Positions 40,756 to 62,029 of a stretch of DNA of 64,000 nt are shown one piece after another. A program made the translations under genes and the position numbers. This stretch comes from Aulosira sp. ZfuVER01 (lineage in GTDB: Bacteria > Cyanobacteriota > Cyanobacteriia > Cyanobacteriales > Nostocaceae): NCBI GenBank assembly GCA_034530615.2, contig JAVRCV020000079.1, positions 64,001 to 128,000 of the forward strand, in the 5' to 3' direction. A model generated the notes under the pieces. That model worked only from the letters and a program-made list of their open reading frames with translations, searched no databases and had not been told where the DNA came from. Within the stretch, counting starts at the first letter, position 1, and each line of letters begins with the position of its first letter.

Positions 40756-41341
40756 TATTTATATAAAGTACAGATCGTTGTAGAGGCAAAACATATTGTG
40801 CCCCTACCTGTGTACTTCATTTACCTGAAAACGGATTGCCTTGGAAACCCACACAACGCAATGCCTCCCCCTGCGGTCTTAACGATCCGTCTTTAACCAA
40901 ACACGATGTTATTTCTCCGAACTGTATTGGACAAGATACGTATATAAAGTAAATAATTATACTTTTATTGCATATTAACTACACATCAATAATATTCCCT
41001 ATTCTTATGCCAATTGAGTTTTCGCCAATTACTTAATATTCACATTGCAAATTGGCTCTAAAGTTTTAATTTTCAGTAAAGTTGTAGTAAAAATAATTAC
41101 GATTTTTAGAAAATAAGCCAGAATGAAATAACTAAATTTCAGGCTAAGTGACAATTAATACAACCCTTGTAAAATTCCACGATTATTTAGAAATTTAGCA
41201 TTTAAATTCATTTTTTTTAGAACACAATTTTTTAGCCCTAGTAATCACAGCATTAACTTGTTAATTGCTGAAATTTAAGTTATGGGCATAAGTAAATACC
41301 ACATATTTTCTAGGAAAATATATTTTTTGAAAAATTTTAAC

Positions 41342-43348
41342 ATGGAATTGATAACTAATTCATTAGCTTCAACTGAAAACGAATTATTTATAAACACTAA
41401 TGCAGAACAAGATAGCTTCAGAGTAACTAGCTTGAAAGAATCCGAACAATGGCAATTACTAGACAAGTGGAATCATACTCAAACTGATTACCCTAGACAA
41501 GCGTGTATTCATCAGCTGTTTGAAGCACAGGTAGAGAAAACACCTGATTCTATAGCGCTAGTATTTGAAAACCAGCAGATTACGTATCGAGATTTGAATA
41601 GTCGTGCTAATCAACTAGCACAATATCTACAAACACTAGGAGTAGGTGCAGAAGTTCTCGTAGGAATCTGCGTAGAACGCTCAGTAGAGATGGTTGTAGG
41701 ACTTCTAGCCATTCTCAAAGCAGGTGGAGCTTATGTACCATTAGATCCAGGGTATCCGCAAGAACGTTTAGCTTTTATGCTGTCAGATACCAATGTATCG
41801 GTACTATTAACTCAAAAAGAACTAGTTGCTAAATTACCTATTCATACTGCATCTGTAATTTGTCTAGATACAGATTGGAATGCTATTGCTCAAAATAATC
41901 AAGAGAACCTAAACACTCACATCACCGCCGACAACTTAGCTTACGTGATGTACACCTCAGGTTCTACAGGTAAACCCAAGGGTGTTTGTGTAATTCATCG
42001 CGGTGTAGTGAGGTTAGTCAAAGAAACTAACTATGCTCAACTAACGGCTGAAGAAGTAATTCTGCAACTGGCCCCTATTTCATTTGACGCTTCAACTTTA
42101 GAAATTTGGGGTTGCTTACTTAATGGTGGAAAATTAGTAATTTGTCCTCCCCATACACCATCTTTAGAAGAATTAGGGCAGATTATTCAGCAAAACCAAG
42201 TGACAACTCTGTGGCTGACGGCTGGTTTATTTCACTTGATTGTAGATGAAAAAATTGATGCTTTAAAATCCTTGCGTCAACTTTTAGCGGGTGGTGATGT
42301 TTTATCAGTTCCTCATGTGCAGAAGTTTCTGCAAACAGTAAAGAACTGTCAACTAATTAATGGTTACGGCCCTACTGAAAATACAACTTTTACCTGTTGC
42401 TACAGCATAACAGCACCATTGCAGCCAGGTGTATCCATTCCCATTGGTCGCCCAATTGCCAATACCCAAGTCTATATATTAGATGAGAACCTCCAACAAG
42501 TCGCGATCGCAGAAGTTGGCGAGTTGTATATTGGCGGTGATGGGCTTGCTAGAGGCTATCTGAACCGTCCTGATTTGACAGCTGAAAAATTTATTTCTCA
42601 CTCATTTAATAACAATTTCCAAACGCCCCTTTACAAGACAGGAGATTTAGCTCGTTTTCTTCCAAATGGCAATATCGAATTTTTAGGTCGAATTGATAAT
42701 CAAGTAAAAATTCGTGGCTTCCGAATTGAACTTGGGGAAATCGAAAGAGAAATTGCCCAACATCCTGACGTTCGCGAAGTTGTTGTTTTAGCACGTCAGC
42801 AAGAAACAGGCGAAAAGCAGTTAGTTGCTTATATTGTTCCTCATCAGAACAGTAGTTACACCCATAATCAATTGCGTAGCTTTTTACAACAGCGACTACC
42901 CAATTACATGGTGCCATCAGCATTTGTGTTGTTAGAAGCAATGCCTTTAACTGCTAATGGCAAAGTTGATAGACATAAATTACCTGCACCCAGTAGAGAA
43001 CGTCCGCAACTCGAACAAGCGTACATTTCTCCCCAAACCGATTTAGAGCGTCAGCTTGCAGATATTTTGTGCGAGTTACTGAAAATCGATCGTGTAGGTA
43101 TTGATGATAATTTCTTTGATTTGGGAGCAACTTCCATGTCAATTTTGCAAGTTGCTGCTCGGGTGCAACAGGAAATTAGTATCGAGCTATCTGCTGTCAA
43201 GCTCTTTCAATATTCCACGATTGGCGCATTAGCAAAATATTTGCAATTAAAACACAACAGCCAACCTTCTTATGACAAGCTGCAAAGTCGTGCCCAACGC
43301 CAGCAAGCAGCTCGTACTCGTCGCCGTAATCATCAACAAGGTGTTTAA
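41342..43348 (+). CDS. NRPS loading module A-T (Val-type code)
   Basis: YTSGSTGKPKG, FDAST, NGYGPTE, YKTGD, GRIDNQVKIRG, NGKVDR; T-domain LGATS; the ORF track opens at 41282. Confidence 0.93.
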   Translation: MELITNSLASTENELFINTNAEQDSFRVTSLKESEQWQLLDKWNHTQTDYPRQACIHQLFEAQVEKTPDSIALVFENQQITYRDLNSRANQLAQYLQTLGVGAEVLVGICVERSVEMVVGLLAILKAGGAYVPLDPGYPQERLAFMLSDTNVSVLLTQKELVAKLPIHTASVICLDTDWNAIAQNNQENLNTHITADNLAYVMYTSGSTGKPKGVCVIHRGVVRLVKETNYAQLTAEEVILQLAPISFDASTLEIWGCLLNGGKLVICPPHTPSLEELGQIIQQNQVTTLWLTAGLFHLIVDEKIDALKSLRQLLAGGDVLSVPHVQKFLQTVKNCQLINGYGPTENTTFTCCYSITAPLQPGVSIPIGRPIANTQVYILDENLQQVAIAEVGELYIGGDGLARGYLNRPDLTAEKFISHSFNNNFQTPLYKTGDLARFLPNGNIEFLGRIDNQVKIRGFRIELGEIEREIAQHPDVREVVVLARQQETGEKQLVAYIVPHQNSSYTHNQLRSFLQQRLPNYMVPSAFVLLEAMPLTANGKVDRHKLPAPSRERPQLEQAYISPQTDLERQLADILCELLKIDRVGIDDNFFDLGATSMSILQVAARVQQEISIELSAVKLFQYSTIGALAKYLQLKHNSQPSYDKLQSRAQRQQAARTRRRNHQQGV

Positions 43349-43351
43349 GCA

Positions 43352-46300
43352 ATGGTGAATATACAAGCATCGGATAGTCAAGATCCTATTGATGGTATTG
43401 CCATTATTGGCATGGTAGGGAGATTCCCTGGCGCTAGAAATGTCGATGAATTATGGCGCAATCTCTGTGAGGGAGTAGAGTCAACAACTTTTTTTGCAGA
43501 AGAAGAGTTAGATCCAAGTATTGACCCGAATCTTTGCAAAGATGCTAGCTACGTCAAAGCCAGAGGAACTATCCCTGGAGGTGAAACCTTTGATGCAGCC
43601 TTCTTTGGCATTAATCCCTCAGAAGCTGTGGTTATGGACCCCCAAGCGAGAGTCTTCCTAGAGTTGGTGTATGAAGCTTTAGAAAATGCTGGTTATGAAT
43701 CAGAGTCTTTCGACGGTTTGATAGGTTTGTACGCTGGTTGTGGTCAAAATACTTATTTTGCCAACCACATTTGTGGCCGGATGGAAATTGTCGATCGCAT
43801 CGGTGAATTTCAGACGATGCTAGCTAATGAAAAAGACTTTTTAACCACCCGTGCTGCTTACAAGCTTAATCTGAAAGGCCCGGCTGTCAGTGTAAATACT
43901 GCTTGTTCTACTTCTTTAGTAGCAATTATCCAGGCTTGTCAAGCTCTAAGCAACTATCAATGCGATATGGCTTTAGCTGGTGGTGTATCTATGACTACAC
44001 CCCAAAATAGCGGTTATATAGCTCAAGAAGGCAGTATGCTTTCTGGTGATGGGCATTGTCGCCCCTTCGATGTCAACGCTCAAGGCACAATGTTCAATAA
44101 CGGTGCAGGAATAGTTGCCCTGAAACGTTTAGAAGATGCATTACAAGATGGCGATCGCATTTATGCCGTAATTCGGGGGCTGGGTATTAATAATGACGGT
44201 GGTGACAAAGTGAGCTTTACGGCTCCCAGTGTAGACGGACAAGCAGAAGCCATTGCAATGGCGCAAGCTTATGCCAACATTCACCCCGAAACCATCTCTT
44301 ATATTGAAGCCCACGGTACAGCTACACCCTTAGGCGACCCAATTGAAATTGAGGCGTTAACGCAAGCATTCCGAGTGCATACAGATGCTAAACAATTTTG
44401 TGCGATTGGCTCAGTTAAAAGCAATGTCGGACATTTAGTAGCGGCGGCTGGAGTAACAGGGTTAATTAAAACTGCGCTCTCGCTCTATCAAAAAAAGCTA
44501 CCCCCAAGCCTGAATTTTACAGCACCAAACCCCAAAATTGACTTTGCCAACAGCCCCTTCTATGTTAATACCAAATTAGTCGAATGGCCAGAAGGTGAAA
44601 CTCCGCGCCGCGCTGGTGTGAGTTCTTTTGGTGTGGGTGGGACGAATGCTCATGTAGTTCTGGAAGAAGCACCACAAATTCAACATTCAGGTGCTTCTCG
44701 CCCACAGCAGCTATTGTTGCTCTCAGCAAAAACGAGTCAAGCCTTAGATGCTGCAACAGCCAATTTGCAGCAACATCTCCAATACAACGCCGAAATTAAC
44801 TTAGCCGATGTCGCTTATACCTTACAGCGCGGACGTAAAGCCTTCAACTATCGGCGCTATGTAGTTTGTCACGATATTACAAATGCGATCGCCTCTCTTC
44901 AATCTTTAGACCCCAATCAAGTAAGTACCCGTTATACAGAAATCCGCAATCCCCCTGTTGCTTTCATGTTTCCTGGGCAAGGGTCGCAATATGTGAACAT
45001 GGGATTGAATCTCTACAATCGCGAACCTGTATTTCGTGAGGTAGTAGATCGATGTGCTGAAATCCTCAAACCTTTGCTGGGTAGAGATTTACGAGAAATC
45101 ATGTATCCCGCACTAGGCGATCGCGAAACTGCGGCTATTTCTTTAAAACAAACCTTCTTTACCCAGCCAGCATTATTCGTGATTGAATACGCCCTAGCGC
45201 AACTATGGCAAAGTTGGGGAGTTAAACCCCAAGCCATGATTGGGCACAGTATTGGTGAATTTGTCGCCGCCTGTATTGCGGGTGTATTTAGCTTAGAAGA
45301 TGCGTTACTGTTGGTTGCAACTCGCGGTCGCTTAATGTGGGAATTACCGGGAGGAGCTATGCTTTCAGTCCGCCTCCCAGCCAAAGAAGTAGAGCCGCGA
45401 TTGAGTGCAGAATTAGCGATCGCCGCGATTAACGGCCCTTCCCTATGTGTAGTTGCAGGCCCCACAGATGCGATCGCATCGCTGCAACAACAACTAGAAA
45501 GTGAAGAGATTGTCTGTCGCCATCTCCATACCTCTCATGCTTTCCACTCTCCAATGATGGATAGTATTGTGGCTCCCTTTGCAGAGGTAGTTGGACAAGT
45601 TAAATTATCAGCACCTCAAATTCCCTTTGTTTCCACTGTCACCGCCAACTGGATTACAGATGAGCAAGCCACCAATCCAATGTATTGGGCAAATCATCTC
45701 CGCCAAACAGTGCGATTTGCGGAAGGCGTACAAACTCTCTGGCAACAGCCAGAACGAGTATTACTGGAGGTGGGGCCACGCGCCACAACTGCAACCCTAG
45801 CGCGCCAACAAGCTAAAGATATCAAACAACAAATTGCGATCGCTTCTCTAAGTGATAACGCTGAGAACAATGCGGAATGGAATGCATTACTCAAAGCAGT
45901 AGGACAACTGTGGTTAGCAGGAGTGACTATTGACTGGAGCAATTTCTATCAAGATGAAACACGCCAGCGAATTCCACTTCCGACTTATCCCTTTGAACGC
46001 CAACGTTTTTGGATCGATCCGCTACCCCATCCAAACCGCACCAAAACTGCTCAACTTCCTAATCCCCAAAGTGTAGAGAAACCTGCAACTATGTCATCGC
46101 CCAAGCAAAAACTTATTCCCCTGCTCAAAGAAGTTCTCGAAGAAACCTCTGGATTGGAAATCGCTGGTTTTGACGAATCGACAACGTTTTTAGAAATGGG
46201 GTTAGATTCCCTATCTCTAACTCAAGTTGGGCTAGCGTTAAAGAAAAAATTTAAAGTCAAGGTCACACTCAGGCAGTTATTAGAAGTTTGCCCGAATTTA

Positions 46301-48244
46301 GGAACTTTGGCTGACTTAGTTAATGAAGGTTTATCTCCAGAAACTGTATGCGCGCTTGGTTTGACAGAAACCATTGCAGAACCTATTCCCGAAGCACCAT
46401 TACCAACACCTGCAACCATAGTTCCCACGACTGTATCTGCACCGCAACAAATTGCTGCTCAACCTGTTGTTGCATCCAGTTTCTTGGAAACTGTGATTAA
46501 TCAGCAGCTACAAATCATGACTCAACAATTGGCGTTACTGGGTAACAACAATTTATCCCTAACAACGCCAGTTGTTCCGACAGTATCCACTCCGCAAAAT
46601 ACTATATCTGTAACCCCCACCCAAACTCCCAAAGAAGCAAAACCAACAGTAGAAGCTGAATCCAACGGCGCTAAAAAGGCATTTGGTGCAGCAGCGCGAA
46701 TTGAAAAAACCCAGAAAACTCTGACAACAGCACAACGCGCTTATCTAGATAAATTTATCCAACGATATACAAAACGGACGCAACAATCCAAAGAATATAC
46801 CCAATCTCATCGCCGTTACTTGGCAGATCCCAGAAGTGTTTCTGGCTTCAACCCCACGATGAAAGAGATGGTTTACCCGATTGTGGTATCTCGTTCATCA
46901 GGTTCTAAACTTTGGGATATTGACGGTAACGAATATGTTGATTTAAGTAATGGTTTTGGTTTGAATTTATTTGGTTGGTCACCAGCTTTCATTACTGAAG
47001 CAATTGAAGCCCAACTGAAACTGGGTATGGAAATCGGCCCCCAAACTCCTTTGGTGGGAGAAGTCGCAAAGTTAATGTGTGAATTAACCAACTTTGACCG
47101 CGCCGCTTTTTGCAACACAGGCTCAGAAGCTGTTTTAGGGGCGATGCGGTTGGCGCGAACAATCACAGGTCGTAACTTAATCGCCATCTTTTCAGGAGCC
47201 TATCACGGCATTTTAGATGAAGTCATTGTTCGCGGTAGCAAGCAACTGCGGTCAATTCCCGCCGCGCCTGGTATTCCTCCAGAAAAAGTAGAGAATATTT
47301 TGGTACTAGATTATGATTCACCCGAATCCTTAGAAATCCTCAAAAGTCGGGCTGATGAATTAGCTGGGGTGATGGTGGAATCTGTACAAAGCCGCCGCCC
47401 AGAATACCAACCCAAAGAATTCTTGCAGCAATTGCGTCAGTTCACTGAAGAGGCTGATATTGCTCTAATTTTTGATGAAATCGTTACTGGATTTAGAATT
47501 CATCCCGGTGGCGCGCAAGCTCACTTCGGTATTAAAGCTGACATTGCTACCTACGGTAAGATAGTCGGCGGTGGGCTACCGATTGGGGTCATTGCTGGGA
47601 CATCAAAATATATGGATGCTCTAGATGGTGGCTTTTGGCAGTATGGTGATGATTCAGTTCCAGAAGTAGGTGTCACTTACTTTGCTGGTACTTTCGTCCG
47701 CCATCCCCTAGCACTAGCAGCCGCAAAAGCAGTACTACAACATTTAAAGCAGAGTGGCCCTAGTTTACAGCAAAACCTCAATGCGAGAACCGATAAGTTT
47801 GTAGCAGAAATTATGGCTTGTTTCCAACAAGTAAAAGCACCCTTCACAGCCTATAATTTCGGTTCCCTATTCATGGTGAAACCTGCGCCAGAGTTCATCT
47901 ATGGAGATTTGTTCTTTTACTTGATGCGGGAAAAGGGAGTGCATATTTGGGATCACCGTCCTTGCTTCCTCACCACAGCCCATTCCGAAGCTGATTTGGC
48001 TTTTGTGATGACGGTCTTTAAAGAGAGTCTTGCTGAAATGCAAGCTGCTGGCTTCTTTGCTACACCTGCTGAAGAAGTCACAAGCCGCAGCCAAAATGCA
48101 GTTGTCGTTACCAATAACAGCCTCCGCAATTGTCCTCCCCAACCTGGTGCAAAATTAGGACGCGATCCGCAAGGTAACCCCTCTTGGTATATCCCCGATC
48201 CTGAGCGTCCTGGGAAATATTTACAAGTCGCCGGTGTTTCCTAG
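43352..48244 (+). CDS. Type I PKS KS-AT-ACP fused to a class III PLP aminotransferase
   Basis: KS TACSTS/EAHGT/NVGHL; AT GHSIG + HAFH (malonyl type); ACP GLDSL; aminotransferase NTGSEA, FDEIVTGFR, ATYGKIVGGG. Confidence 0.95.
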   Translation: MVNIQASDSQDPIDGIAIIGMVGRFPGARNVDELWRNLCEGVESTTFFAEEELDPSIDPNLCKDASYVKARGTIPGGETFDAAFFGINPSEAVVMDPQARVFLELVYEALENAGYESESFDGLIGLYAGCGQNTYFANHICGRMEIVDRIGEFQTMLANEKDFLTTRAAYKLNLKGPAVSVNTACSTSLVAIIQACQALSNYQCDMALAGGVSMTTPQNSGYIAQEGSMLSGDGHCRPFDVNAQGTMFNNGAGIVALKRLEDALQDGDRIYAVIRGLGINNDGGDKVSFTAPSVDGQAEAIAMAQAYANIHPETISYIEAHGTATPLGDPIEIEALTQAFRVHTDAKQFCAIGSVKSNVGHLVAAAGVTGLIKTALSLYQKKLPPSLNFTAPNPKIDFANSPFYVNTKLVEWPEGETPRRAGVSSFGVGGTNAHVVLEEAPQIQHSGASRPQQLLLLSAKTSQALDAATANLQQHLQYNAEINLADVAYTLQRGRKAFNYRRYVVCHDITNAIASLQSLDPNQVSTRYTEIRNPPVAFMFPGQGSQYVNMGLNLYNREPVFREVVDRCAEILKPLLGRDLREIMYPALGDRETAAISLKQTFFTQPALFVIEYALAQLWQSWGVKPQAMIGHSIGEFVAACIAGVFSLEDALLLVATRGRLMWELPGGAMLSVRLPAKEVEPRLSAELAIAAINGPSLCVVAGPTDAIASLQQQLESEEIVCRHLHTSHAFHSPMMDSIVAPFAEVVGQVKLSAPQIPFVSTVTANWITDEQATNPMYWANHLRQTVRFAEGVQTLWQQPERVLLEVGPRATTATLARQQAKDIKQQIAIASLSDNAENNAEWNALLKAVGQLWLAGVTIDWSNFYQDETRQRIPLPTYPFERQRFWIDPLPHPNRTKTAQLPNPQSVEKPATMSSPKQKLIPLLKEVLEETSGLEIAGFDESTTFLEMGLDSLSLTQVGLALKKKFKVKVTLRQLLEVCPNLGTLADLVNEGLSPETVCALGLTETIAEPIPEAPLPTPATIVPTTVSAPQQIAAQPVVASSFLETVINQQLQIMTQQLALLGNNNLSLTTPVVPTVSTPQNTISVTPTQTPKEAKPTVEAESNGAKKAFGAAARIEKTQKTLTTAQRAYLDKFIQRYTKRTQQSKEYTQSHRRYLADPRSVSGFNPTMKEMVYPIVVSRSSGSKLWDIDGNEYVDLSNGFGLNLFGWSPAFITEAIEAQLKLGMEIGPQTPLVGEVAKLMCELTNFDRAAFCNTGSEAVLGAMRLARTITGRNLIAIFSGAYHGILDEVIVRGSKQLRSIPAAPGIPPEKVENILVLDYDSPESLEILKSRADELAGVMVESVQSRRPEYQPKEFLQQLRQFTEEADIALIFDEIVTGFRIHPGGAQAHFGIKADIATYGKIVGGGLPIGVIAGTSKYMDALDGGFWQYGDDSVPEVGVTYFAGTFVRHPLALAAAKAVLQHLKQSGPSLQQNLNARTDKFVAEIMACFQQVKAPFTAYNFGSLFMVKPAPEFIYGDLFFYLMREKGVHIWDHRPCFLTTAHSEADLAFVMTVFKESLAEMQAAGFFATPAEEVTSRSQNAVVVTNNSLRNCPPQPGAKLGRDPQGNPSWYIPDPERPGKYLQVAGVS

Positions 48245-48257
48245 CGTGTTTTAAAAC

Positions 48258-48312
48258 TTTGGCGTTGCATATTGTTGGGATGATTTGTTTAATCTACTTC
48301 AGCAACGCCAAA
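48258..48312. repeat. Short inverted-repeat element between the PKS and JmjC genes
   Basis: TTTGGCGTTGC ... GCAACGCCAAA. Confidence 0.6.
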
Positions 48313-48379
48313 CATCAATCCCACAGAAAAATATTGAGAGTCAGTCATTTTTGCAAATACTTACCAATCAAGATTTTTT

Positions 48380-49402
48380 ATGCCAGTTGATAATTTACTT
48401 GAAAGTATTTCTATTCAGTCCGATTCAAAACTTCCTGAACAAATCATTCAAGCTGAACCTTTAAGCTTTAAAGAAAATTTCAACTCTTCTCACTTCATGT
48501 TTTCTCATAACCTGGCGGGACATCCTTTGTTTGAAATTCCCCGCTTGGTTGAGTTGGCTGATACTATCCTCAGTCAGGGGAGAACGAACAAAATTCAGAC
48601 TTATACCAGCAGAGTCCCTGTTGAGCAAAAGTGGAATCATCGACCCAGAATCAAGCAAATTTCCGAAGTTAAGGAAGCGATCGCAGAAATTGCGGAATCA
48701 GATTCCTGGGTGATGCTGGAAGATGTGCAAGTAGACCCACAATACGCCGCTTTGCTTGACCAAATCTTCACTGAACTCGAAATTCTTACAGGTAGACCGC
48801 TTCGCCAAGAAATGACTTGGTTCGGTGCTTACATCTTTATTGCTTCTCCCCATTCTGTTACGCCTTACCATATCGATAGCGAGTTGAACTTCCTCTTTCA
48901 GATTCATGGCGAAAAACAGATGAGTCTCTTCGATCAAAACGATCGTTCTGTACTCAGCGAGGAAGCAATCGAAAAATTTTACATGGGCGAGCTAAATGTA
49001 GCTAATTATCAAGAAGAGAATCAAATTAAAGCCAGCGTTTACGATTTACAACCAGGTAAAGGATTGCATCATCCAATACTGGCACCTCATTGGGCTAAAA
49101 ATGGTAGTCAGGTTTCTGTGGCTTTAAGTATCCTCTTTTATCTGCGACCTTATGATTTGAAAGCCAGAGTCTATCAAGTCAACAACTACCTGCGCCAACT
49201 CGGATTAGAACCTACCCCACCAGGAAAATCTGCACTGCTTGACCAAATCAAAATCTCTGCTTTAGGTCTTTTGTGCGATCGCCAGCCAAAAAGTAAATTT
49301 GCAATCCCACGTTCTGGAGCATTAAGACTCAAATCAATTGAGAAAAGGCTCAAACAATTTACTAACAAAATCGTGAATAAAATTAAAAATTTATCAAAAT
49401 AG
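48380..49402 (+). CDS. JmjC/cupin-like Fe(II)/2-oxoglutarate oxygenase
   Basis: TPYHIDSELNF (HxD), QIHGEK, L.PG...HHP...PHW (distal His). Confidence 0.75.
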   Translation: MPVDNLLESISIQSDSKLPEQIIQAEPLSFKENFNSSHFMFSHNLAGHPLFEIPRLVELADTILSQGRTNKIQTYTSRVPVEQKWNHRPRIKQISEVKEAIAEIAESDSWVMLEDVQVDPQYAALLDQIFTELEILTGRPLRQEMTWFGAYIFIASPHSVTPYHIDSELNFLFQIHGEKQMSLFDQNDRSVLSEEAIEKFYMGELNVANYQEENQIKASVYDLQPGKGLHHPILAPHWAKNGSQVSVALSILFYLRPYDLKARVYQVNNYLRQLGLEPTPPGKSALLDQIKISALGLLCDRQPKSKFAIPRSGALRLKSIEKRLKQFTNKIVNKIKNLSK

Positions 49403-49450
49403 TATAAGCATAAATTTGTATCTGAAGATAAATTAGATAGCAAAATATCA

Positions 49451-50590
49451 ATGTACAAACATATTAATTCGCTCACCTCTCTACGAGGTATTGCATCTGT
49501 AGTTGTTGTTATCCATCATTTCTCTTACTACACATTACCTAAAACTGGTTCAACTTTATCAACATATAGCAATTTTTTTCATAATGGATATTTGTGGGTA
49601 GACTTCTTTTTTATGTTGAGTGGTTTTATCATGACCCACGTTTATGCTAGAGATTTTTCTACAAAAGTGACTTCAGATAATTATCGCTCATACTTACTCT
49701 CACGTTTTGCAAGAATTTATCCTCTACATATATTTATCTTGTCTTTATTCGTTGGATTAGAGATTTTTAAAACATTTTTACTGCATCATTTTGTATTCAC
49801 GGGTAAGTTTAACTTAACAGCATTATTTGCCAATATTTTTCTTCTCCAAGCCTTTGACCTCAACTGTCCACCTTTATTTTGGTGTAATACCTACTGGAAT
49901 GAACCTGCGTGGTCAATTAGTGTAGAGTTTTTTATTTACTGTATATTTCCTTTTTTATTGTTTTTTCTATTAAAGAATAGTTATAAAAATGATTTGATGA
50001 TTTATCTTTCTAGCCTCATAGGTATATTATTATTAGTTACTTTTACTCGTGGGAATTTAGATAGTATTATCGGTGTACCTGCGATAGCTAGATGCGGACT
50101 AGAATGTGTACTTGGCATTATCACTTACAAAGTCTATCGTCGAGGTAATTATCAAAAGTATTTCAATCTGAATTTACTGGCAATCATAGCTATAACTTGG
50201 ATAATGCTAATTATGCATAATTACTGGCATCATTGGCGTAGTCTTCATGACTGCCTGATTTTACCTGCTTTTTCTTTACTAATTTTAGCTGTAGCAGTCA
50301 ATAATAAGGGTGTGATATCAAAATTTTTAAATTCACAGCTAATGCTATATCTCGGAACAATATCTTACTCAGTTTATCTAGTTCATTGGTTTATTCAAGA
50401 AGTAATTAAATTTTCCTGGGTTTATGAATTTAACGAAATTTTTGGACAAAGTTTTACTGGATTGGAAAACTTTCTAGCTCTAGGAGTATTTCTAACCATC
50501 ACCTTATTACTTGCATCACTAACATATAGATTTGTAGAGGTTCCTATGCGTAAATATTTAAAGTCAAAACTCTTAGCTAACCAGTATTGA
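49451..50590 (+). CDS. Membrane-bound acyltransferase family 3 (OafA-like)
   Basis: LTSLRGIA...VV.HH, VDFFFMLSGF, RFARIYP, WSISVE, LGTISYS.YL.H, FVEVP. Confidence 0.9.
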   Translation: MYKHINSLTSLRGIASVVVVIHHFSYYTLPKTGSTLSTYSNFFHNGYLWVDFFFMLSGFIMTHVYARDFSTKVTSDNYRSYLLSRFARIYPLHIFILSLFVGLEIFKTFLLHHFVFTGKFNLTALFANIFLLQAFDLNCPPLFWCNTYWNEPAWSISVEFFIYCIFPFLLFFLLKNSYKNDLMIYLSSLIGILLLVTFTRGNLDSIIGVPAIARCGLECVLGIITYKVYRRGNYQKYFNLNLLAIIAITWIMLIMHNYWHHWRSLHDCLILPAFSLLILAVAVNNKGVISKFLNSQLMLYLGTISYSVYLVHWFIQEVIKFSWVYEFNEIFGQSFTGLENFLALGVFLTITLLLASLTYRFVEVPMRKYLKSKLLANQY

Positions 50591-50660
50591 TTATCAGCAG
50601 TTGCTCGCAACGGAAATCCGTCCAAACCCATTAAATAACTTGAGAAAATAAGAAATTTTT

Positions 50661-53600
50661 ATGACTTTATCACCTGTAAATTTCCAGTCTGAATTAACTG
50701 CTGTTGAGTTTGACCCATTTGCAGAGGGAGAATTACTATTAACTGCTCCTGCTACTGAATCTCAAAAAGAAATTTGGGCTTCTGTGCAAATGGGAGATGC
50801 TGCCAATTGTGCTTATAACGAATCCCAATCTCTGCGATTCAAAGGCGAACTAGATACCACAGTTTTTCAGTCTGCACTGCAAGAGTTAGTGCTACGTCAT
50901 GAAGCGCTCAGGACAACTTTTAGCACAGATGGTAATACACTCTGCATTGTTGGTTCTTTGCAAATTGAAATCCCGATTATTGATATTTCTAGCCTTGAAC
51001 CACAAGAGCAAAAAGAAAAATTAGCTAGTATCAGACGACAAGAAGTAGAAAAGCCTTTTGATTTGGAACATGGTCCTCTATTCCGGGCGCAAATTATCAA
51101 ATTGCAGCCGCAAGAACATATAACTATTTTGACTGCTCATCATATTATTTGTGATGGTTGGTCTTGGGCTGTGCTGATGCCAGATTTGGGTAAACTGTAT
51201 TCTGGCTTGCTAGAGGGTATTGTTCCAGAGTTAGAAGAAAGCGATCGCCTCAGTGATTATGCTGTTTTACAAGAAGAAGAGGTGGATAGCCCAGAAGCGA
51301 TCGCCACTGAACAATATTGGCTAGAACAATTCGCTGACTCTGTACCTGTACTAGATTTCCCCTGCGATCGCCCTCGCCCACATATCAGAACTTTTAACGC
51401 CGCGCGAGAAGATTCGCAATTAAATCCGCAACTAGTTGCAGATCTCAAACAGCTAGGCACAAAATTTGGTTGTAGTTTTATGACTACTATCCTGGCAGGA
51501 TTTGAGGCTTGGCTACACCGTATCACCGGACAAAATGACTTGGTTGTCGGTATTCCCGCCGCCGGACAAGCTGCTTTAGGGCAATATAATCTCGTAGGAC
51601 ACTGTGTAAATTTATTACCACTGCGTAGCCAAATTAATGGCGCAAAATCTTTCAGCGAATATTTGCAAAGCCGTCGTTCTAATGTTTTAGATGCCTACGA
51701 TCATCAACAATTTACCTTTGGTAGTCTAGTTAAAAAATTAAGTATTCCACGGGATTCTAGCCGGATTCCCTTGGTTCCCATTACATTTAATATCGATCAA
51801 GGTTTAGATAGCGATAAGCTCCCCTTTGCAGGGTTAGAGGTAGAGTTTTTCTCTAATCCTCGTTCCTTTGAGAACTTTGAACTATTTATTAATGCTACAG
51901 AATTACGCGGTCAACTAACTCTGGAATGTCAGTACAACACTAATTTATTTGATGCTGACACTATCCGCCGCCGGATGGCAGAGTTTGAAACTTTGTTGCA
52001 TGGTATAGTTGCAAACCCCAATCAAACTATTGCGAAATTGCCGATTTTGCCAGCAGTTGAGCAACAGCTATTAGCAGCATGGAACCAAACTCAAACCAAC
52101 TATCCTCAAGATAAATCCATCCATCAATTATTTGAGGAACAGGTAGCGCGTACTCCTGATGCTGTAGCTTTGGTATTTCAAGGACAGCAACTTACTTACC
52201 GAGAGTTAAATACTCGCGCTAATCAATTAGCACAATACCTACAAACATTAGGAGTAGGCGCAGATGTGCTGGTGGGAATCTGCGTGGAACGCTCATTAGA
52301 AATGATAGTAGGTCTATTAGGTATCCTCAAAGCAGGTGGGGCTTATGTACCTTTAGATCCGGGTTATCCTCAAGAACGTTTGGCGTTCATGCTTGCGGAT
52401 ACCCAAATTAAATTATTAGTCACCCAAAAACGACTAGTTGAAAAACTACCTACTCATACTGCAAATATCATTTGCTTGGATGCAGATTGGCATACTATCA
52501 GCCAACAAGCAACAGAGAATTTAATTACTAATGTCAAGCCTCATAACTTGGCTTATGTAATGTATACCTCTGGTTCTACAGGTACACCCAAAGGTGTTAG
52601 TGTTATTCATCAAGGTGTAGTCAGGTTAGTTAAAGAAACTAACTATGTCAGCCTCACTGAAAAAGAAGTATTTCTGCAAATTAGTCCTGTTTCTTTTGAC
52701 GCTTCCACTTTTGAAATTTGGGGTTGTTTACTTAACGGTGGCAAATTAGTTATCTTCCCTCCTCATACTCCATCTTTAGATGAATTAGGGGGAATTATTC
52801 AGCAATACCAAGTAACAACTCTCTGGCTGACAGCGGGTTTATTCCACTTGATAGTTGATGAAAAAATTGAGGCTTTAAAACCCTTGCGTCAACTGTTAGC
52901 TGGTGGTGATGTTTTATCTGTTCCTCACGTTCAGAAATTTCTCAATACAGTAGAAAACTGTAAATTAATTAATGGTTACGGGCCGACAGAAAGTACAACT
53001 TTTACTTCCTGTTATGAAATCACAGCGCCATTAAAGCCAGGGGCTTCTATTCCTATCGGTCGTCCAATTGCTAATACCCAAGTTTATATTTTGGACTCCT
53101 ATTTACAACAAGTCCCCATTGGCATTACAGGTGAGTTGTATATTGGTGGTGATGGTTTAGCACGAGAATATTTCAATCGCCCAGATTTAACTGCTGAGAG
53201 ATTTATTGCTAACCCCTTGAGCGCAGATTCTCAATCACGCTTATATAAGAGTGGTGACTTGGCGCGCTATTTGCCTAATGGCGAGATTGAATACCTCGGT
53301 CGAATTGACAATCAGGTAAAAGTTAGTGGTTTCCGCATTGAATTGGGTGAAATTGAAATCGCACTTTTACAATCTCCGCTAGTGAAAGAAGCTGTAGTAA
53401 TTGTGCGTGAAGATTCTCCTGGTGAGAAAGTGCTAGTTGGGTATTTTGTAGCTGAAACTAATGAAGATAGTCCGCAAATCATCTCAGAATTACGGCGATT
53501 CTTAAAACAACAATTGCCTGAGTATATGGTGCCAAAGATTTTTGTGGCACTAGAAGCTTTACCTTTGAATGCAAATGGCAAAGTAGATCGCCGCGCCTTG

Positions 53601-53942
53601 CCAAAGCCTGATGCTTATAGTCCAGAACTAGAAGCAAATTATGTTGCACCTCGTACTCCCATTGAGCAGCAAATTGCAGATATCTGGACACAGGTTTTAA
53701 ATGTCAAGCAGGTGGGAATTTATGACAACTTTTTTGAATTGGGCGGATATTCTCTCCTCGGAATTCAAGTAATTTCTCGTCTGAGACAGGCTTTGCAAGT
53801 AGAAATTTTGATGTCCAATTTATTTGAATTACCCACGGTAGCAGATTTGGCTGAACGAGTGGAAACTCTGCGTTGGGCTGCCCAAGGTATTCAAGCTGCT
53901 GAGAGTGATTCAGCAGATGATTACGAAGAAGGTGAGCTTTGA
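50661..53942 (+). CDS. NRPS elongation module C-A-T (Val-type code)
   Basis: C HHIICDG; intact A3-A10; T LGGYSL; acidic C-terminal tail DDYEEGEL. Confidence 0.95.
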   Translation: MTLSPVNFQSELTAVEFDPFAEGELLLTAPATESQKEIWASVQMGDAANCAYNESQSLRFKGELDTTVFQSALQELVLRHEALRTTFSTDGNTLCIVGSLQIEIPIIDISSLEPQEQKEKLASIRRQEVEKPFDLEHGPLFRAQIIKLQPQEHITILTAHHIICDGWSWAVLMPDLGKLYSGLLEGIVPELEESDRLSDYAVLQEEEVDSPEAIATEQYWLEQFADSVPVLDFPCDRPRPHIRTFNAAREDSQLNPQLVADLKQLGTKFGCSFMTTILAGFEAWLHRITGQNDLVVGIPAAGQAALGQYNLVGHCVNLLPLRSQINGAKSFSEYLQSRRSNVLDAYDHQQFTFGSLVKKLSIPRDSSRIPLVPITFNIDQGLDSDKLPFAGLEVEFFSNPRSFENFELFINATELRGQLTLECQYNTNLFDADTIRRRMAEFETLLHGIVANPNQTIAKLPILPAVEQQLLAAWNQTQTNYPQDKSIHQLFEEQVARTPDAVALVFQGQQLTYRELNTRANQLAQYLQTLGVGADVLVGICVERSLEMIVGLLGILKAGGAYVPLDPGYPQERLAFMLADTQIKLLVTQKRLVEKLPTHTANIICLDADWHTISQQATENLITNVKPHNLAYVMYTSGSTGTPKGVSVIHQGVVRLVKETNYVSLTEKEVFLQISPVSFDASTFEIWGCLLNGGKLVIFPPHTPSLDELGGIIQQYQVTTLWLTAGLFHLIVDEKIEALKPLRQLLAGGDVLSVPHVQKFLNTVENCKLINGYGPTESTTFTSCYEITAPLKPGASIPIGRPIANTQVYILDSYLQQVPIGITGELYIGGDGLAREYFNRPDLTAERFIANPLSADSQSRLYKSGDLARYLPNGEIEYLGRIDNQVKVSGFRIELGEIEIALLQSPLVKEAVVIVREDSPGEKVLVGYFVAETNEDSPQIISELRRFLKQQLPEYMVPKIFVALEALPLNANGKVDRRALPKPDAYSPELEANYVAPRTPIEQQIADIWTQVLNVKQVGIYDNFFELGGYSLLGIQVISRLRQALQVEILMSNLFELPTVADLAERVETLRWAAQGIQAAESDSADDYEEGEL

Positions 53943-54036
53943 TCCTTCTATAGCTAATCAGGTTTGGTGAGGGAAGGGGAGAAATCCCTATTCCCATTAC
54001 CAATTACCCACACAGCCACATTTTCCACGAGGTTTT

Positions 54037-57000
54037 ATGAAAACATTGGATGAACTACTATCTGAGCTACGCCAGCGCGATGTCAAACTTTGGTTAGAGG
54101 GCGATCGCCTGCGTTATCGCGCAGCAAAAGACAGCCTAACGCCAGAATTGCTGAACGAGTTAAAAACGCAAAAAGCCGAAATTATCAACTTTCTGCGTCA
54201 AGTTACCACAGTCACTACTGCCAAAATTCCGCCAATTGTCGTTTGTGAAAGAACTGGTAATTTGCCCGTTTCTTTTGGACAGCAACGCTTGTGGTTTCTG
54301 CATCAGTTTGAACCCAATAGTTCCTCAAATAATATGCCCGTGGTGGTGCGGTTTACGGGGAATCTCAATGTTGCTGTGTTGGAGGAAAGTTTGCGAGAAG
54401 TTGTCCGTCGTCATGAAGTATTGCGGACAACTTTTCCGGCTGTGAATGGTAAGCCGACTCAAGTCATCGCCACGGATGTTTCCTTGAAGCTACCAGTTAT
54501 TGACTTACAGCAAGTACCAGAAGAACAAAGAGAGACAGAAGCTCACATCTTAGCAACTAAAGAAGCTCATCAACCTTTTGATTTAGCTAATGGGCCAGTT
54601 TTGCGAGTGCTGCTGCTGCGGTTGAGCGATCGCGAACATCTGCTGATTTGGAATATGCACAGTATAGTTTGCGATGGTGCTTCTTCTGATGTGTTCTATC
54701 AAGACTTTACTACCATCTACAAAGCACTTTCAGCCGGTCAGCTTTCGCCTTTACCGCCCTTACCAGTACAGTATGCTGATTTTACTCATTGGCAACATCA
54801 ATGGCTGCAAGGTGAAGTTTTAGAGTCACAGGTAAACTACTGGAAGCAAAAGCTAGAAGGCCATTTACCGATTATAGACTTACCTTACGATCATCCTCGT
54901 CCTCAAGGAGCGCAAACATACCGAGGCGATCGCGCGGCGCTGTTACTACCCAAGGCGCTCAACCATGCGTTGACAGACTTGAGTCAAAAATGGGGAGCCA
55001 CCCTGTTTATGACTTTATTAACAGTGTTTGAGTTATTGCTTTACCGCTATTCTGGGCAAGAAGATTTACTAGTTAGCTTTGCCAGTGCTGGACGCGGACA
55101 AGTTGAAACCGAAAGACTGGTTGGATTTTTCTCGAATACTTTGGTACTGCGGAGTAACTTAGCTGGTAATCCCACTTTCCGAGAATTATTAGACCGAGTA
55201 CGTAAGGATTGTTTAGAAGCTTATAGCCATCAAGATTTACCTTTTGAAAGACTTATTGAAGAACTTAAACCAGAACAACAAAGCCGTAATACTTCCTCAC
55301 TATTTCAAGTAAAATTCTCCCTCAATCCGCCTTGGTCAAATGGTCGTGGTATGGCAGCGGTAGAACTGCCCGATTTGACGATCGCTTCTCTATTTGGCTA
55401 CATATATCATGGTAAGACCAAATACGATCTGACATTGGTATTACGGGAACAGGATAATGGTCTGGGCATGGTATTCGATTACAATGCCGATATGTTTGAT
55501 ACCAGTACCGTAGAGCGGATGCTGGGACATTACAAAACTTTACTGGAAGGTATTGTTGCCAACCCAGATCGGCCGATTTCGGAGTTACCGCTGTTAACAG
55601 CTGGGGAACAGCAATTATTAGTTGATTGGCATGGCAAACAAGCTGATTATCCCCAAGATATTTGCATACATCAGTATTTTGAGAATCAAGTTAAACTCAC
55701 TCCCAATAATATTGCAGTCAGTTTTGCAAATCAGCAGTTCACCTATCTAGAACTCAATCACCGCGCAAACCAGCTAGCTCACTATTTGCAAACTTTAGGC
55801 GTAGGAGCCGGAGTAAATGTCGGTTTGTATTTAGAGCCTTCCCTAGACACGATTGTGGGGCTATTGGGTATTTTAAAAGCCGGGGGAACCTATGTAGCGA
55901 TCGCACCGACATCTGGGGCTGAGATTTTAGCAGATGCTCAAGTATCTTTTCTCTTAACTCAAAGTTCCTTAGTTAAGAGAGTTCCTGAGCATCAGGTGCA
56001 AGTTATCTGTATAGATACTGAATTAAAAAGTATCACTATTTACTCAACTGAAAATCCAGTTTGTCAGGCTACAGGGGAGAATCTCGCCTGTGTAATGTAT
56101 GTTTCTGGCGTAAATGGTGTAGTGATTACACACAGCAATCTTGTTACCCACAGCCTTGCAATCAGCGAAACTTGGGAATTGGCAAAGAGCGATCGCGTCT
56201 TACTTCAACCTAGTCTCAGAGGCGATACGTTTATTGAATCACTCTTTCCTACTTGGGTTACAGGTGCTACTGCAATTCTGCAATCTCAAGAAGTACAAAA
56301 CTCAGCGGCGCAGTTTTTCTCATTCGTTGCTCAACAACAAATTACCGTTGTTAATTTAGCTACTGCTTTTTGGTATGAGTTAGTCAAAGAATTATCTGCA
56401 TCTCCTCAAACCTTACCAGCTAGTTTGCGTTTAGTGATGGTTGGTGGCGAAAAAGTCTCCCGCAATGCTTATTTAACTTGGGTAGAAAAGGTTGGTAAGC
56501 AAGTACGCTGGCTGAATGCTTATGGAACGCTAGAAACGACTTTAACCGCCACGGTTTACGATCCGGAGACTGCGACGGAAGCTAGTGAAACACGCTCAGA
56601 AATTCCTCTAGGAAAAGCGATCGCTAATACCCAAGTTTACATCCTCGATAAGCGATCGCAACCTATACCCATCGGCGTGACTGGTGAAATATACATCAGT
56701 GGTATTGGTGTTGCTCAAGGCTATTTCAACCGTCCGGAGTTAACATCTGAGAAATTTATCCCTAATCCCTTTAGCAGCGAATCTGGAGCATATCTTTACA
56801 GAACTGGCGATTTAGGACGCTACTTAAGTGATGGCAATATTGAGTTTGTGGGAAGTTTAGATAATCAAGCCAAAATTTGCCTGAATACAACTAATACTCA
56901 AATAGAAAAAATATTTGTTCCAGCAGAAGACCAATTGCAAATTCAGTTAACAGAAATTTGGGAGAATTTCTTAGGCATTCATCCTATTGGCATCACAGAC

Positions 57001-58131
57001 AACTTTTTTGACTTAGGTGGACACTCACTAATTGCAGTACGCCTATTTGCTGAGATTGAAAAAGCTTTTGGCAAAACTCTGCCTCTATCTATTCTTTTAC
57101 AAGCACCAACTATTGAGCAATTAGCTCATTTCCTCCGCGACAAATCACCCGAAAGCCAACCGAATAGCGAGCAACCGCTGCATTTAGTTAAAGACTTTTT
57201 TGGGAAAGCGATCGCCAAAGTTTTCAAAGGCAATAAGTCGCAACAAATTGTAGATGAAAATCCAACTAATCTAGAGACAGGAGAATGGCTACCTTGGTCA
57301 TCACTAGTACCGCTTCAACCCAACGGTGATAAGCCACCTCTATTTTGTGTTCATGGTGCTGGTGAAAGTGTTCTTTACTATCGTAATTTCGCTAATTATC
57401 TCGGTGCAGACCAGCCATTTTATGCACTCCAAGCTAGAGGTGTAGATGGAAGAAAAGCCCCTCTAACTCGGGTTGAGAAAATGGCGGCTCACTATATTAA
57501 GGAGATCCAAACTATTCAACCTCAAGGGCCTTATTTTCTAGGAGGCTATTCTTTTGGTGGTTTAGTTGTTTGGGAAATGGCTCGACAGCTAGTAGCACAA
57601 GGTCACAAAGTTGCTTTGTTAGCTTTATTTGATACTAGTAATACAACTCGTCGGCAAACTACTATTAAACCCATACCTGCACAAAAGCGTATTTCTCGCC
57701 ATTTAAATAACCTTTTAGAAGTCGGCCCTAACTACATTCTTCAGCAAATAGAAGGAAAGAGCAGTTGGGTTGAGTATATGGTTAAACAAATGTTCAGAAA
57801 ATTTACTTTTAAAGCTTACCTGAACATCTCCCGCATCTTACCTTACACCTACCGCAAACAAGTAAAAATTAAGGATTTTAACAAGCAAGCTGCCAAGGTA
57901 TATATTCCAAAAGCTTATCCAGGCCGAGTCACTGTATTTCGAGCAGAAGAACGTCCTGTAAACAATGCAGGTGAGGTAGATCCAAACATGGGTTGGAGTG
58001 AATTGGCTTTAGGTGGTCTCGATATCCAACATGTTCCAGGAAACCACTTCTCGATTTTTAGCGAACCCTATGTCAAATCTATGTCAGAAAAAATGAAGGC
58101 TTGTATAGAACAAGCTATTGCAGAAACTTGA
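54037..58131 (+). CDS. NRPS terminal protein: docking domain, variant C, degenerate A, T, TE
   Basis: TubC-like N-terminal docking domain; C motif HSIVCDG; A3 reads YVSGVNG, A8 truncated, A9-A10 missing; T GGHSL; TE GYSFG and PGNH. Confidence 0.9.
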   Translation: MKTLDELLSELRQRDVKLWLEGDRLRYRAAKDSLTPELLNELKTQKAEIINFLRQVTTVTTAKIPPIVVCERTGNLPVSFGQQRLWFLHQFEPNSSSNNMPVVVRFTGNLNVAVLEESLREVVRRHEVLRTTFPAVNGKPTQVIATDVSLKLPVIDLQQVPEEQRETEAHILATKEAHQPFDLANGPVLRVLLLRLSDREHLLIWNMHSIVCDGASSDVFYQDFTTIYKALSAGQLSPLPPLPVQYADFTHWQHQWLQGEVLESQVNYWKQKLEGHLPIIDLPYDHPRPQGAQTYRGDRAALLLPKALNHALTDLSQKWGATLFMTLLTVFELLLYRYSGQEDLLVSFASAGRGQVETERLVGFFSNTLVLRSNLAGNPTFRELLDRVRKDCLEAYSHQDLPFERLIEELKPEQQSRNTSSLFQVKFSLNPPWSNGRGMAAVELPDLTIASLFGYIYHGKTKYDLTLVLREQDNGLGMVFDYNADMFDTSTVERMLGHYKTLLEGIVANPDRPISELPLLTAGEQQLLVDWHGKQADYPQDICIHQYFENQVKLTPNNIAVSFANQQFTYLELNHRANQLAHYLQTLGVGAGVNVGLYLEPSLDTIVGLLGILKAGGTYVAIAPTSGAEILADAQVSFLLTQSSLVKRVPEHQVQVICIDTELKSITIYSTENPVCQATGENLACVMYVSGVNGVVITHSNLVTHSLAISETWELAKSDRVLLQPSLRGDTFIESLFPTWVTGATAILQSQEVQNSAAQFFSFVAQQQITVVNLATAFWYELVKELSASPQTLPASLRLVMVGGEKVSRNAYLTWVEKVGKQVRWLNAYGTLETTLTATVYDPETATEASETRSEIPLGKAIANTQVYILDKRSQPIPIGVTGEIYISGIGVAQGYFNRPELTSEKFIPNPFSSESGAYLYRTGDLGRYLSDGNIEFVGSLDNQAKICLNTTNTQIEKIFVPAEDQLQIQLTEIWENFLGIHPIGITDNFFDLGGHSLIAVRLFAEIEKAFGKTLPLSILLQAPTIEQLAHFLRDKSPESQPNSEQPLHLVKDFFGKAIAKVFKGNKSQQIVDENPTNLETGEWLPWSSLVPLQPNGDKPPLFCVHGAGESVLYYRNFANYLGADQPFYALQARGVDGRKAPLTRVEKMAAHYIKEIQTIQPQGPYFLGGYSFGGLVVWEMARQLVAQGHKVALLALFDTSNTTRRQTTIKPIPAQKRISRHLNNLLEVGPNYILQQIEGKSSWVEYMVKQMFRKFTFKAYLNISRILPYTYRKQVKIKDFNKQAAKVYIPKAYPGRVTVFRAEERPVNNAGEVDPNMGWSELALGGLDIQHVPGNHFSIFSEPYVKSMSEKMKACIEQAIAET

Positions 58132-58168
58132 ATTTTTCTAGGCTGAAAGTAAATATAATACAGATAAA

Positions 58169-58203
58169 AAATGGTAGAAAGTCAATTTGACTTTCTACCA
58201 TTT
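58169..58203. terminator. Hairpin terminator after the NRPS cluster (probably bidirectional)
   Basis: AAATGGTAGAAAGTCAA-T-TTGACTTTCTACCATTT perfect inverted repeat between convergent genes. Confidence 0.75.
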
Positions 58204-58237
58204 CCGTCCGCACATAGTAGCTCTTTTTGACAAACTT

Positions 58238-59562: not shown

Positions 59563-60078
59563 TTTTACTTGAATACGTCTTAAGAAAAACTTTTGTGATA
59601 GAAATTTTCAACCAATATGAATAAAGATATTATTACCATTCATATTGGCTACAAAATCATTAGTAAGAGGAAATCATACTAATTGAATACTAAATCTAGA
59701 TAGCTTCAATTCACTAACTCAGTAATTTTAGCTGCCTTTATTTCATATAGCATGATAGCCATAAAATACATTATTTATTTTTGAAGTTTATTTGAAAGGT
59801 CATTATTTAATCAAGGGTGGTAAAAGTATTCTATATAAGATAGCTTTATAATTTGATGCCCTTTAACCGCATCTTTACATTATCTTATTTAAAGCTGAGA
59901 GATTTTTATAGATTCAGTAAAGTTGTTCGCATAATTTTTTTTATAAATTCAGGGAAGTTACTATACTTAGTTAGTTATGATATTCTCGAAATGACTTAAT
60001 AATAAATTTCCATATTTAGCGCCAAATTTTATCTTTTAGTTTGTCATATCAAGAATTAAAGGATCTATTGAATTAATT

Positions 60079-60960: not shown

Positions 60961-61058
60961 TGTCTAGAGTCCATAGTCAAAGAACTATTGACAGTCTCTA
61001 TTTCTCTGTGACTTTGTGTCTCTGTGGTTAATTTATTTCTTAAAAATCCCTACTTATT

Positions 61059-61967: not shown

Positions 61968-62029
61968 CAGGAAGGTGCAGGGAGCAGGGGGAAGAAATGC
62001 TCGATCCTTGACTCTTGACCAACGACAAA

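Follow-up and report, generated by a model that had tools for sequence, protein, structure and literature searches.

An amino acid-primed NRPS-PKS-aminotransferase cassette in Aulosira sp. ZfuVER01 and its possible role in decorating a cell-surface polysaccharide

A 64,000-nucleotide stretch of the Aulosira sp. ZfuVER01 genome (the window; contig JAVRCV020000079.1, positions 64,001 to 128,000) carries a hybrid nonribosomal peptide synthetase-polyketide synthase (NRPS-PKS) cassette with an in-line aminotransferase, in which six open reading frames (ORFs) on the plus strand occupy positions 41282-58131. The cluster is real, intact and under selection. We put at about one half the probability that its product is a cationic acyl group decorating a polysaccharide of the cell surface, added here in trans. 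This destination appears likely because close cyanobacterial copies of the cassette sit inside surface-polysaccharide operons, and action in trans is proposed because the cassette lies outside such an operon in the window's genome. If the product is polysaccharide-bound, assembly lines make cell-surface decorations, and the lack of a known metabolite for a cluster that is common and expressed would have an explanation.

Polysaccharide operons and the membrane acyltransferase

The comparison draws on 66 tabulated loci; omitted are two duplicates, one locus broken by a transposon, one that is short, one that is probably mis-binned, and distant loci that are cupin-only or of another build. The polysaccharide link was examined in cyanobacteria and in one Acidobacteria locus. 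Of 22 relatives that belong neither to the window's genus nor to Nostoc proper, 18 carry a polysaccharide gene within the cassette or at most 6 kb from it; three of the remaining four have at most 3 kb of flank on each side, and the fourth has one side missing. The G250 cassette, which has Val/Val codes and five core proteins 64-84% identical to those of the window, is preceded by a priming sugar transferase gene 60 nt upstream, and a Wzx flippase gene overlaps its last gene and is followed by GT2 and GT4 glycosyltransferases, Wzy, a further GT4 and WecG, giving a complete Wzy operon. The cassette lies within other Wzy-type operons in G560 and in G206, G195, G181 and G165, and a GT8 gene stands amid the core genes of the Waterburya and Pseudanabaena copies. 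Polysaccharide genes occur at none of 20 control loci, each of 16-20 kb, that hold other aminotransferase-bearing NRPS/PKS genes. In a quick aminotransferase tree G560 and the five g46 loci fall in the window's clade, which has 31 rows, and a separate clade, of 14 rows, consists of relatives that are mostly polysaccharide-linked; since linked loci lie in both clades of this tree, the linked state looks ancestral.

The cassette also encodes a stand-alone membrane acyltransferase-3 protein (AT3, PF01757) that fits the glycan-acyltransferase motif set (Table 1). AT3 proteins are described as carrying R/K-X10-H, FFXISG-like and RXXR motifs (PMC7448272) and as acylating extracytoplasmic glycans (PMC9558356). 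The AT3 is specific to the cassette: close relatives are present in 31 of 37 cassette-bearing genomes (one copy broken), and the other 264 genomes hold one broken remnant and one 39% relative. The window's copy, though detached from polysaccharide genes, retains it. A PDB sequence search found no solved AT3 relative. Seven non-Nostocales-type loci without the AT3 have instead a membrane-anchored esterase-like gene, encoding a protein of 446-501 residues with an N-terminal hydrophobic anchor (L031, L033, L035, L038, L040, L054 and L126:17683-19167), which could be an alternative acyl-transfer partner.

Several observations weigh against a polysaccharide destination. No polysaccharide gene lies within 6 kb of the window's copy, none of ten same-genus copies is linked, and the same holds for all three Nostoc-type loci with wide flanks and all 31 named Nostoc loci with narrow flanks; in G142 and G153, GT2 and GT4 genes lie ~8-12 kb off, beyond the ebo genes. 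The proline-primed sister clade described below has no polysaccharide genes nearby in eight of eight genomes, as judged by a BLAST screen only. The 18 linked relatives are not independent, five representing one genus and pairs coming from Alkalinema, Waterburya and Pseudanabaena, and the link at L045 rests on a weak GT4 match. The control windows of 16-20 kb often remain inside larger clusters. The AT3 is missing in 6 of the 37 cassette genomes; enzymes of this family acylate free natural products too (PMC9558356), and their R-X10-H motif is proposed to bind acetyl-CoA (PMC7448272), so the window's AT3 may only acetylate. The thioesterase (TE) has an ordinary triad, and among solved structures it is best matched by an NRPS TE that releases peptides. 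A polysaccharide operon elsewhere in the genome offers no specific link: its Wzx is matched in 117 of 301 genomes, cassette-free ones included, and has no match in the cassette-bearing G157. This operon, on contig C49 (L168, C49:150070-163390), is a complete Wzy-type operon without the cassette (priming transferase, GT2, Wzx, GT4, Wzy, GT4, WecG, GT2, GH10, Wzc) that resembles the G250 host operon at 34-66% identity. As a specific partner of the cassette it is unsupported, being widespread and not cassette-tied.

The preliminary description took the product to be a free peptide, and a free small molecule is a real possibility, although the odds are against it. The TE would release 3,4-diamino-5-methylhexanoyl-Val ([M+H]+ 260.197) or its lactam, optionally hydroxylated, with the AT3 acetylating it at the membrane; the vicinal diamine could chelate copper or inhibit metallo-aminopeptidases, and the hydroxylated skeleton resembles amastatin. 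Such a product would suit the intact standard TE, the window and Nostoc copies that have no polysaccharide genes nearby, and the copper-resistance genes around both of the plasmid relatives viewed that have annotation. Close strains differ in the second residue, in N-methylation, in oxygenases and in TE alleles, as is the case in diversifying metabolite clusters, and a small polar cation would be easily overlooked by reversed-phase metabolomics. A free product is harder to reconcile with the cassette's recurrent placement in polysaccharide operons of different kinds, with the glycosyltransferases that interrupt the core genes of some relatives, with the lack of a transporter among the cassette genes and with the literature searched, in which no free product was found. 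With 18 of 22 relatives linked, the comparison points away from a free peptide and towards a polysaccharide-linked role.

Domain layout and predicted chain

In Pfam order the six ORFs read A-T (adenylation and carrier); KS-AT-ACP-class III aminotransferase; Cupin_8; Acyl_transf_3; C-A-T, with a condensation domain; and TubC_N docking-C-A-T-TE. The large domains score E-values of 1e-43 to 1e-113, so that the calls are far beyond chance; the C-terminal subdomain of the terminal A domain is unmatched. Pfam and motifs together confirm the layout first described for this line (A-T, KS-AT-ACP-aminotransferase, C-A-T and a C*-pseudoA-T-TE subunit, with an oxygenase and an acyltransferase), to which the docking domain is added. 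The start proposed earlier, 41342, also holds: it is the second ATG of an ORF that begins at 41282, and the resulting 668-residue protein is consistent with same-genus homologues of 658-712 residues.

Table 1. Features of the NRPS-PKS-aminotransferase cassette, in window coordinates
Feature	Position	Strand	Remarks
Loading NRPS, A-T	41342..43348	+	Code DALWLGGTF(K), Val-type; carrier Ser618 (counted from 41282)
PKS, KS-AT-ACP-aminotransferase	43352..48244	+	Without reductive domains
KS	43397-44671	+	
AT	44963-45877	+	Malonyl-type, HAFH
ACP	46124-46321	+	
Class III PLP aminotransferase	46871-48046	+	
JmjC-type Fe/2-oxoglutarate oxygenase (by motif and model)	48380..49402	+	H164-D166-H230; basic amphipathic C-terminal helix; optional
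Stand-alone membrane acyltransferase-3 (AT3)	49451..50590	+	R12-X10-H23, FFMLSG, RFAR
Elongation NRPS, C-A-T	50661..53942	+	C motif HHIICDG; code DAFWLGGTF(K), Val-type
Terminal subunit, docking domain-C*-A-T-TE	54037..58131	+	A dead and truncated
C*	54259-55620	+	Non-canonical, LCL-derived, HSIVCDG
Terminal A	55678-56877	+	Dead, truncated
Terminal T	56944-57135	+	
TE	57334-58062	+	
Terminator-like 18-pair hairpin	58167..58205	listed for -	Between last cluster stop and convergent eboD; consensus match only

Catalytic motifs are complete everywhere except in the last C domain, where the second His is replaced by Ser, and in the last A domain. They comprise TAC185/HGT/KSNVGH in the KS, GHS633 and HAFH in the AT, DS953 in the ACP, DE..TGFR and TYGK1403 in the aminotransferase (PF00202 at residues 1174-1509; pyridoxal phosphate (PLP) lysine 1403), HH160-161ICDG in C2, the peptidyl carrier serines S618, S1031 and S997, and the TE triad GYS1172/D1199/H1337. 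Pfam at E<=0.01 finds no ketoreductase (KR), dehydratase or enoylreductase in the PKS module. A promoter scan was uninformative (46 sites against 45.5 expected), and a repeat search returned only the paralogy of A, C and T domains and sites that we take to be HIP1-type.

The codes of A1 (DALWLGGTF) and A2 (DAFWLGGTF) are both Val-type. Among solved structures the A1 pocket best matches PA1221, with nine of nine code positions identical, and PA1221 and the A1 code are here assumed to be valine-specific. The loading code is Val-type at 41 of 41 loci with a loading domain in the main set (a count that omits six distant loci of other layout), at 9/9 in the same-genus set and at 9/11 in a further set. 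The second A domain is variable among relatives, being Val-type, DISQITLIW, Gly-type or Pro-type, with a methyltransferase inserted in some; the second Val proposed earlier stands for the window, where the A2 code is Val-type, but the residue changes between strains.

The nearest solved relative of the aminotransferase is the MycA domain (E 1e-125 over ~430 residues), and glutamate-semialdehyde aminomutases come next (1e-52). As in MycA/McyE-type β-aminating modules, the aminotransferase follows the ACP with a PLP lysine and an Asp motif, and there is no KR. Its clade is separate from the other sampled cyanobacterial aminotransferase modules (support 99, quick tree), and ratios of nonsynonymous to synonymous substitution (dN/dS) are 0.02-0.06 for it and 0.02-0.08 for the KS. 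The defining features of iturin, mycosubtilin and puwainaphycin lipopeptide synthetases, a fatty-acyl ligase as starter and a long peptide part of many modules, are not found, the starter being a Val-type A domain and only one elongation module being live. The cluster works like a MycA module and is not an iturin-type synthetase.

In the proposed pathway A1 would load L-Val, and the KS and AT would add one malonate to give a 4-amino-3-oxo thioester, reductive domains being absent. The in-line aminotransferase would then convert the ketone to an amine, by analogy with MycA, creating a vicinal diamine, and C2-A2 would append Val. Module logic, that is, the Val-type codes, malonate extension and a MycA-like aminotransferase, makes it probable that the assembly line yields 3,4-diamino-5-methylhexanoyl-Val, C12H25N3O3. 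The claims already made for this part, β-amination of the McyE/MycA kind after a malonyl AT and a 3,4-diamino-5-methylhexanoyl unit from Val, malonate and transamination, gain support from the Val-type A1 code, from MycA as best solved match and from the HAFH motif in 29 of 30 PKSs compared, the window's own counted. Beta-amination modules are known from fatty-acyl-primed lipopeptides; primed by an amino acid, such a module should yield a vicinal diamino acid, and a search under several name variants found no paper on this kind of building block.

Terminal module and oxygenase

The last module is predicted not to elongate. Its condensation domain (C*) reads HSIVCDG, so that the catalytic second His of the canonical LCL class is gone. 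The best PDB matches, Txo1 and Txo2, point to LCL ancestry, and none of the 38 PDB matches is recognised as a dehydrating modAA domain (McyA, AmbE type), a class with few structures; the class labels of these matches are our assumption. At 39 of 44 loci, and likewise in a further locus set, Ser, Cys, Ala or Arg stands in place of the second His, so no single substitute catalyst is kept. A role as Cys/Ser transacylase is rejected, since Ala and Arg variants occur, and C* as a dock for the oxygenase alone is unlikely, since C* is kept where the oxygenase is lost.

The features of an active adenylation domain are lacking in A3, which has a broken P-loop (YVSGVNG), no pocket Asp235/FD motif and an in-frame loss of ~85 residues that includes the A10 lysine region; the A10 lysine is absent even from the full-length A3 of G157. 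Several lineages have deleted A3 partly or wholly, with terminal subunits of 876-1364 residues against ~1430. The dN/dS of C* is 0.02-0.09 in 11 of 11 comparisons, not above that of the live C2 (0.08-0.14), and that of A3 is 0.14-0.25: A3 is decaying while C* is strongly conserved. C* is likely a retained docking or transfer scaffold, not a condensing enzyme, which would hand the chain to T3 and the TE. The TE, the membrane AT3 or both would then transfer the acyl group to a glycan or a lipid-linked repeat unit, the least certain step of the scheme.

A different skeleton would arise if T3 were loaded in trans and C* condensed a third residue, or if the aminotransferase acted as a 1,2-aminomutase to give a 3-amino-4-oxo acid. 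T3 keeps its serine motif and C* is conserved like the live C2, and in five Nostoc loci (L023-L027) the second His is intact, A3 is live and the last module is predicted to add a third residue. The glutamate-semialdehyde aminomutases, which work via a vicinal diamine, are moreover the nearest solved aminotransferase relatives after MycA. The loss of the second His at 39 of 44 loci and the much better score of MycA (1e-125 against 1e-52) make these variants improbable.

The T3-TE end (56944-58131) has its own history. The window's TE is only 46-50% identical to those of G157, G160 and G156, whose C* is 98-99% identical to the window's, and TE alleles form three clades that each span two genera (quick tree), so this end is apparently a swapped allele. 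TE exchange, the in-frame partial loss of A3 and the loss of the oxygenase in most relatives would be expected if the detached copy in the window's lineage were decaying and made nothing. This is very improbable: all six frames are open, the remaining catalytic residues are all present, dN/dS is at most 0.21 in every domain except A3 and TE, and the counterparts in N. punctiforme are expressed. The cassette is also covered by contigs from RNA libraries of a related organism; these contigs belong to one study, share only 8-9% of words and, as contigs, are uninformative on level or strand and no proof of transcription.

The oxygenase matches the Pfam cupin profile marginally (27.5 bits against a cut-off of 27.4), and a PDB sequence search with it gave no useful match. 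Its structure model (pLDDT 89.6) has YxbC, FIH, NO66 and YcfD, JmjC proteins with a double-stranded β-helix, as top fold matches, and in an alignment of 30 sequences H164 and D166 are invariant and H230 is kept in at least 90%. The HxD...H triad and the modelled fold assign it to the JmjC Fe/2-oxoglutarate type, and where present it would likely hydroxylate the product. It is intact in two of nine same-genus copies and absent or broken in seven, and is rejected as a core gene; an oxygenase was rightly placed in this line, but as an optional one. At L006:11149-12318, L053, L056 and L059 there is another JmjC oxygenase, joined to a TubC_N docking domain; the fusion suggests that this tailoring enzyme docks in the manner of an assembly-line subunit.

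Published counterparts, neighbours and known systems

The five-gene order A-T, PKS, AT3, C-A-T, C-A-T-TE matches Npun_R6591-R6587 of Nostoc punctiforme, annotations being compared with the window, which adds the optional cupin. Npun_R6591 (A domain), R6590 (ketoacyl synthase), R6589 (AT3), R6588 (A domain), R6587 (C, A, carrier, TE) and R6586 (FG-GAP, DUF4114) form one co-regulated region, labelled 'FG-GAP', and among the strains compared five of these six genes have orthologues in the two symbiotic ones only (Warshan et al. 2017, PMC5702739). When the contact with feather moss is chemical, all five cluster genes rise about two-fold (log2FC 0.99-1.13), and four of the five proteins appear in the proteome table without change; when it is physical, the four NRPS/PKS genes go up by 0.66-1.71 and the AT3 goes down (-4.5), and R6586 stands at -10.4 in the supplement, contradicting the paper's text (PMC5702739). 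A preprint (10.64898/2026.08.14.744816) names a moss-responsive cluster pks5, which Blasia induces moderately; Npun_R6591-R6587 is apparently this cluster, the label being joined from two of its sentences. The carrier of Npun_R6587 lies at 1065-1132, as in full-length terminal-subunit homologues, and named Nostoc loci, including N. punctiforme NIES-2108, show 72-85% identity, no sequence named as PCC 73102 being among the hits. The gene after the cassette in L010, L014 and L022 carries DUF4114, like Npun_R6586, and such a gene is also present in G231; since it is not in all relatives, the FG-GAP/DUF4114 gene lies outside the core. Where N. punctiforme has this FG-GAP neighbour, the window has a convergent eboD instead; the window's cluster further differs in having the oxygenase and in lying beside mgtE and the ebo genes.

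The family CF-34, a hybrid of 5 genes and 16.3-16.7 kb in PCC 73102 and ATCC 29413, is listed with product 'Unknown' (Calteau et al. 2014, PMC4247773); its likeness to the window's cluster is in size, gene count and host only, the rows having no locus tags or domains. An AT3 named from ATCC 29413 is 65% identical to that of the window. Very probably the cluster belongs to the published cryptic pks5/CF-34 family, the N. punctiforme match resting on annotation and synteny. No product in print was found for the cluster or pks5 in the literature searched, which leaves out most subscription journals, and the accessible parts of PMC12184294, PMC5987646, PMC8073705, PMC7261140, PMC5913679 and PMC9324945 do not describe it. 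The cluster was thus fairly described as having no characterised product, but it is no unmatched singleton, being common in Nostocales and sharing its gene order with a cryptic cluster of N. punctiforme, a genetically tractable symbiont. The present analysis adds the link to pks5, the AT3 and the finding that the last module is vestigial.

Of 301 family genomes, 37 hold aminotransferase orthologues of at least 86% identity, among them 10 of the 15 from the window's own genus, and 20 of 401 phylum-wide genomes pass a looser cut-off. A cupin-based scan gave 79 loci, many from lichen and soil Nostoc with the same gene order. A Nostoc-like copy on an Acetobacteraceae-binned contig (L055), 64-72% identical to three window proteins, is probably mis-binned. 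The proline-primed sister family (L152-L164; G310, G436, G491, G526, G591, G603, G607, G623) has the layout C-A(Pro code)-T followed by KS-AT-ACP-aminotransferase, in many cases a JmjC gene, and finally C-A(Val or Ala code). Two annotated plasmid relatives of the PKS-aminotransferase were viewed, on Spirosoma pSLIN02 (L170) and Variovorax WDL1 plasmid 3 (L171), and both are surrounded by copper-resistance genes; a third plasmid record was unannotated. Near the Variovorax copy there are also TIGR04325 methyltransferases, a glycosyltransferase and an FG-GAP protein.

The cassette is flanked by mgtE upstream and, downstream, by convergent eboD, eboA-C and an eboE-like gene. The ebo cluster (58357-64000, and L169), background on which is taken from PMC6282210, has eboD divergent from eboA, B, C, E and F. 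NCBIfam names EboA and EboC; the eboD, eboB and eboE-type labels are presumed. It adjoins the cassette in 8 of 10 same-genus copies (the window and 7 of 9), and eboC is present in 14 of the 15 genomes of the genus, among them all five that lack the cassette; a role for ebo in the cluster, as ebo-dependent export, is rejected in favour of a shared neighbourhood, since eboC is independent of the cassette. No ScyE-family gene above the cut-off was found in the window's genome, and ScyE is present in 2 of 15 genus genomes against 14 of 15 for eboC, so ebo likely serves something other than scytonemin. Elsewhere in the window, 33616-38340 encodes a 1574-residue secreted-type protein with DUF4347, three laminin-G, Calx-beta and sugar-dehydrogenase domains, whose N-terminus is resembled by those of proteins that follow the cassette in several Nostoc loci; 18007-30357 is an island for the uptake and catabolism of sugar alcohols (FGGY kinase, mannitol dehydrogenase, ABC transporter, SDR, DeoR-type regulator), and 462-1367 encodes a graspetide ATP-grasp ligase (MvdD pre-ATP-grasp and RimK).

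Among known systems, MycA/ItuA of mycosubtilin and iturin synthesis and McyE share with the window's PKS an in-line class III aminotransferase after the ACP. Those modules start from fatty acyl or polyketide chains and lead into long cyclic peptides, whereas the line described here is amino-acid-primed, has its own AT and has a single live elongation module. Statine-type units are made by extending an amino acid with malonate, the 3-hydroxyl being formed by a KR; the window has no KR, and an amine is predicted where statine has that hydroxyl. The malonate-extended amino acid and the branched amino-acyl-Val skeleton are shared with statine-type units, bestatin and amastatin. Oac, ExoH, ExoZ, GumF/G and IcaC are stand-alone AT3s with the same PF01757 motifs that carry out membrane acyl transfer onto surface glycans; the donors described for such enzymes are acetyl, succinyl and isovaleryl, whereas the putative donor here is a peptide, and the accessible literature gave no published case of an assembly-line-built peptide as AT3 donor. 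For its carrier-to-polymer logic the proposed system is likened to Dlt, which uses an MBOAT protein and a single D-Ala. We suggest tentatively, as a combination that is on the whole rather unlikely, a Dlt-like system in which an NRPS-PKS-built polyamine-peptide acyl group would be relayed by a non-condensing C domain to a terminal carrier and then carried through the membrane by the AT3 and attached to exopolysaccharide. In plant-associated Nostoc the cassette would have left the operon and become host-responsive, and the pks5 product would be a polymer-bound cation, invisible to solvent-extract metabolomics.

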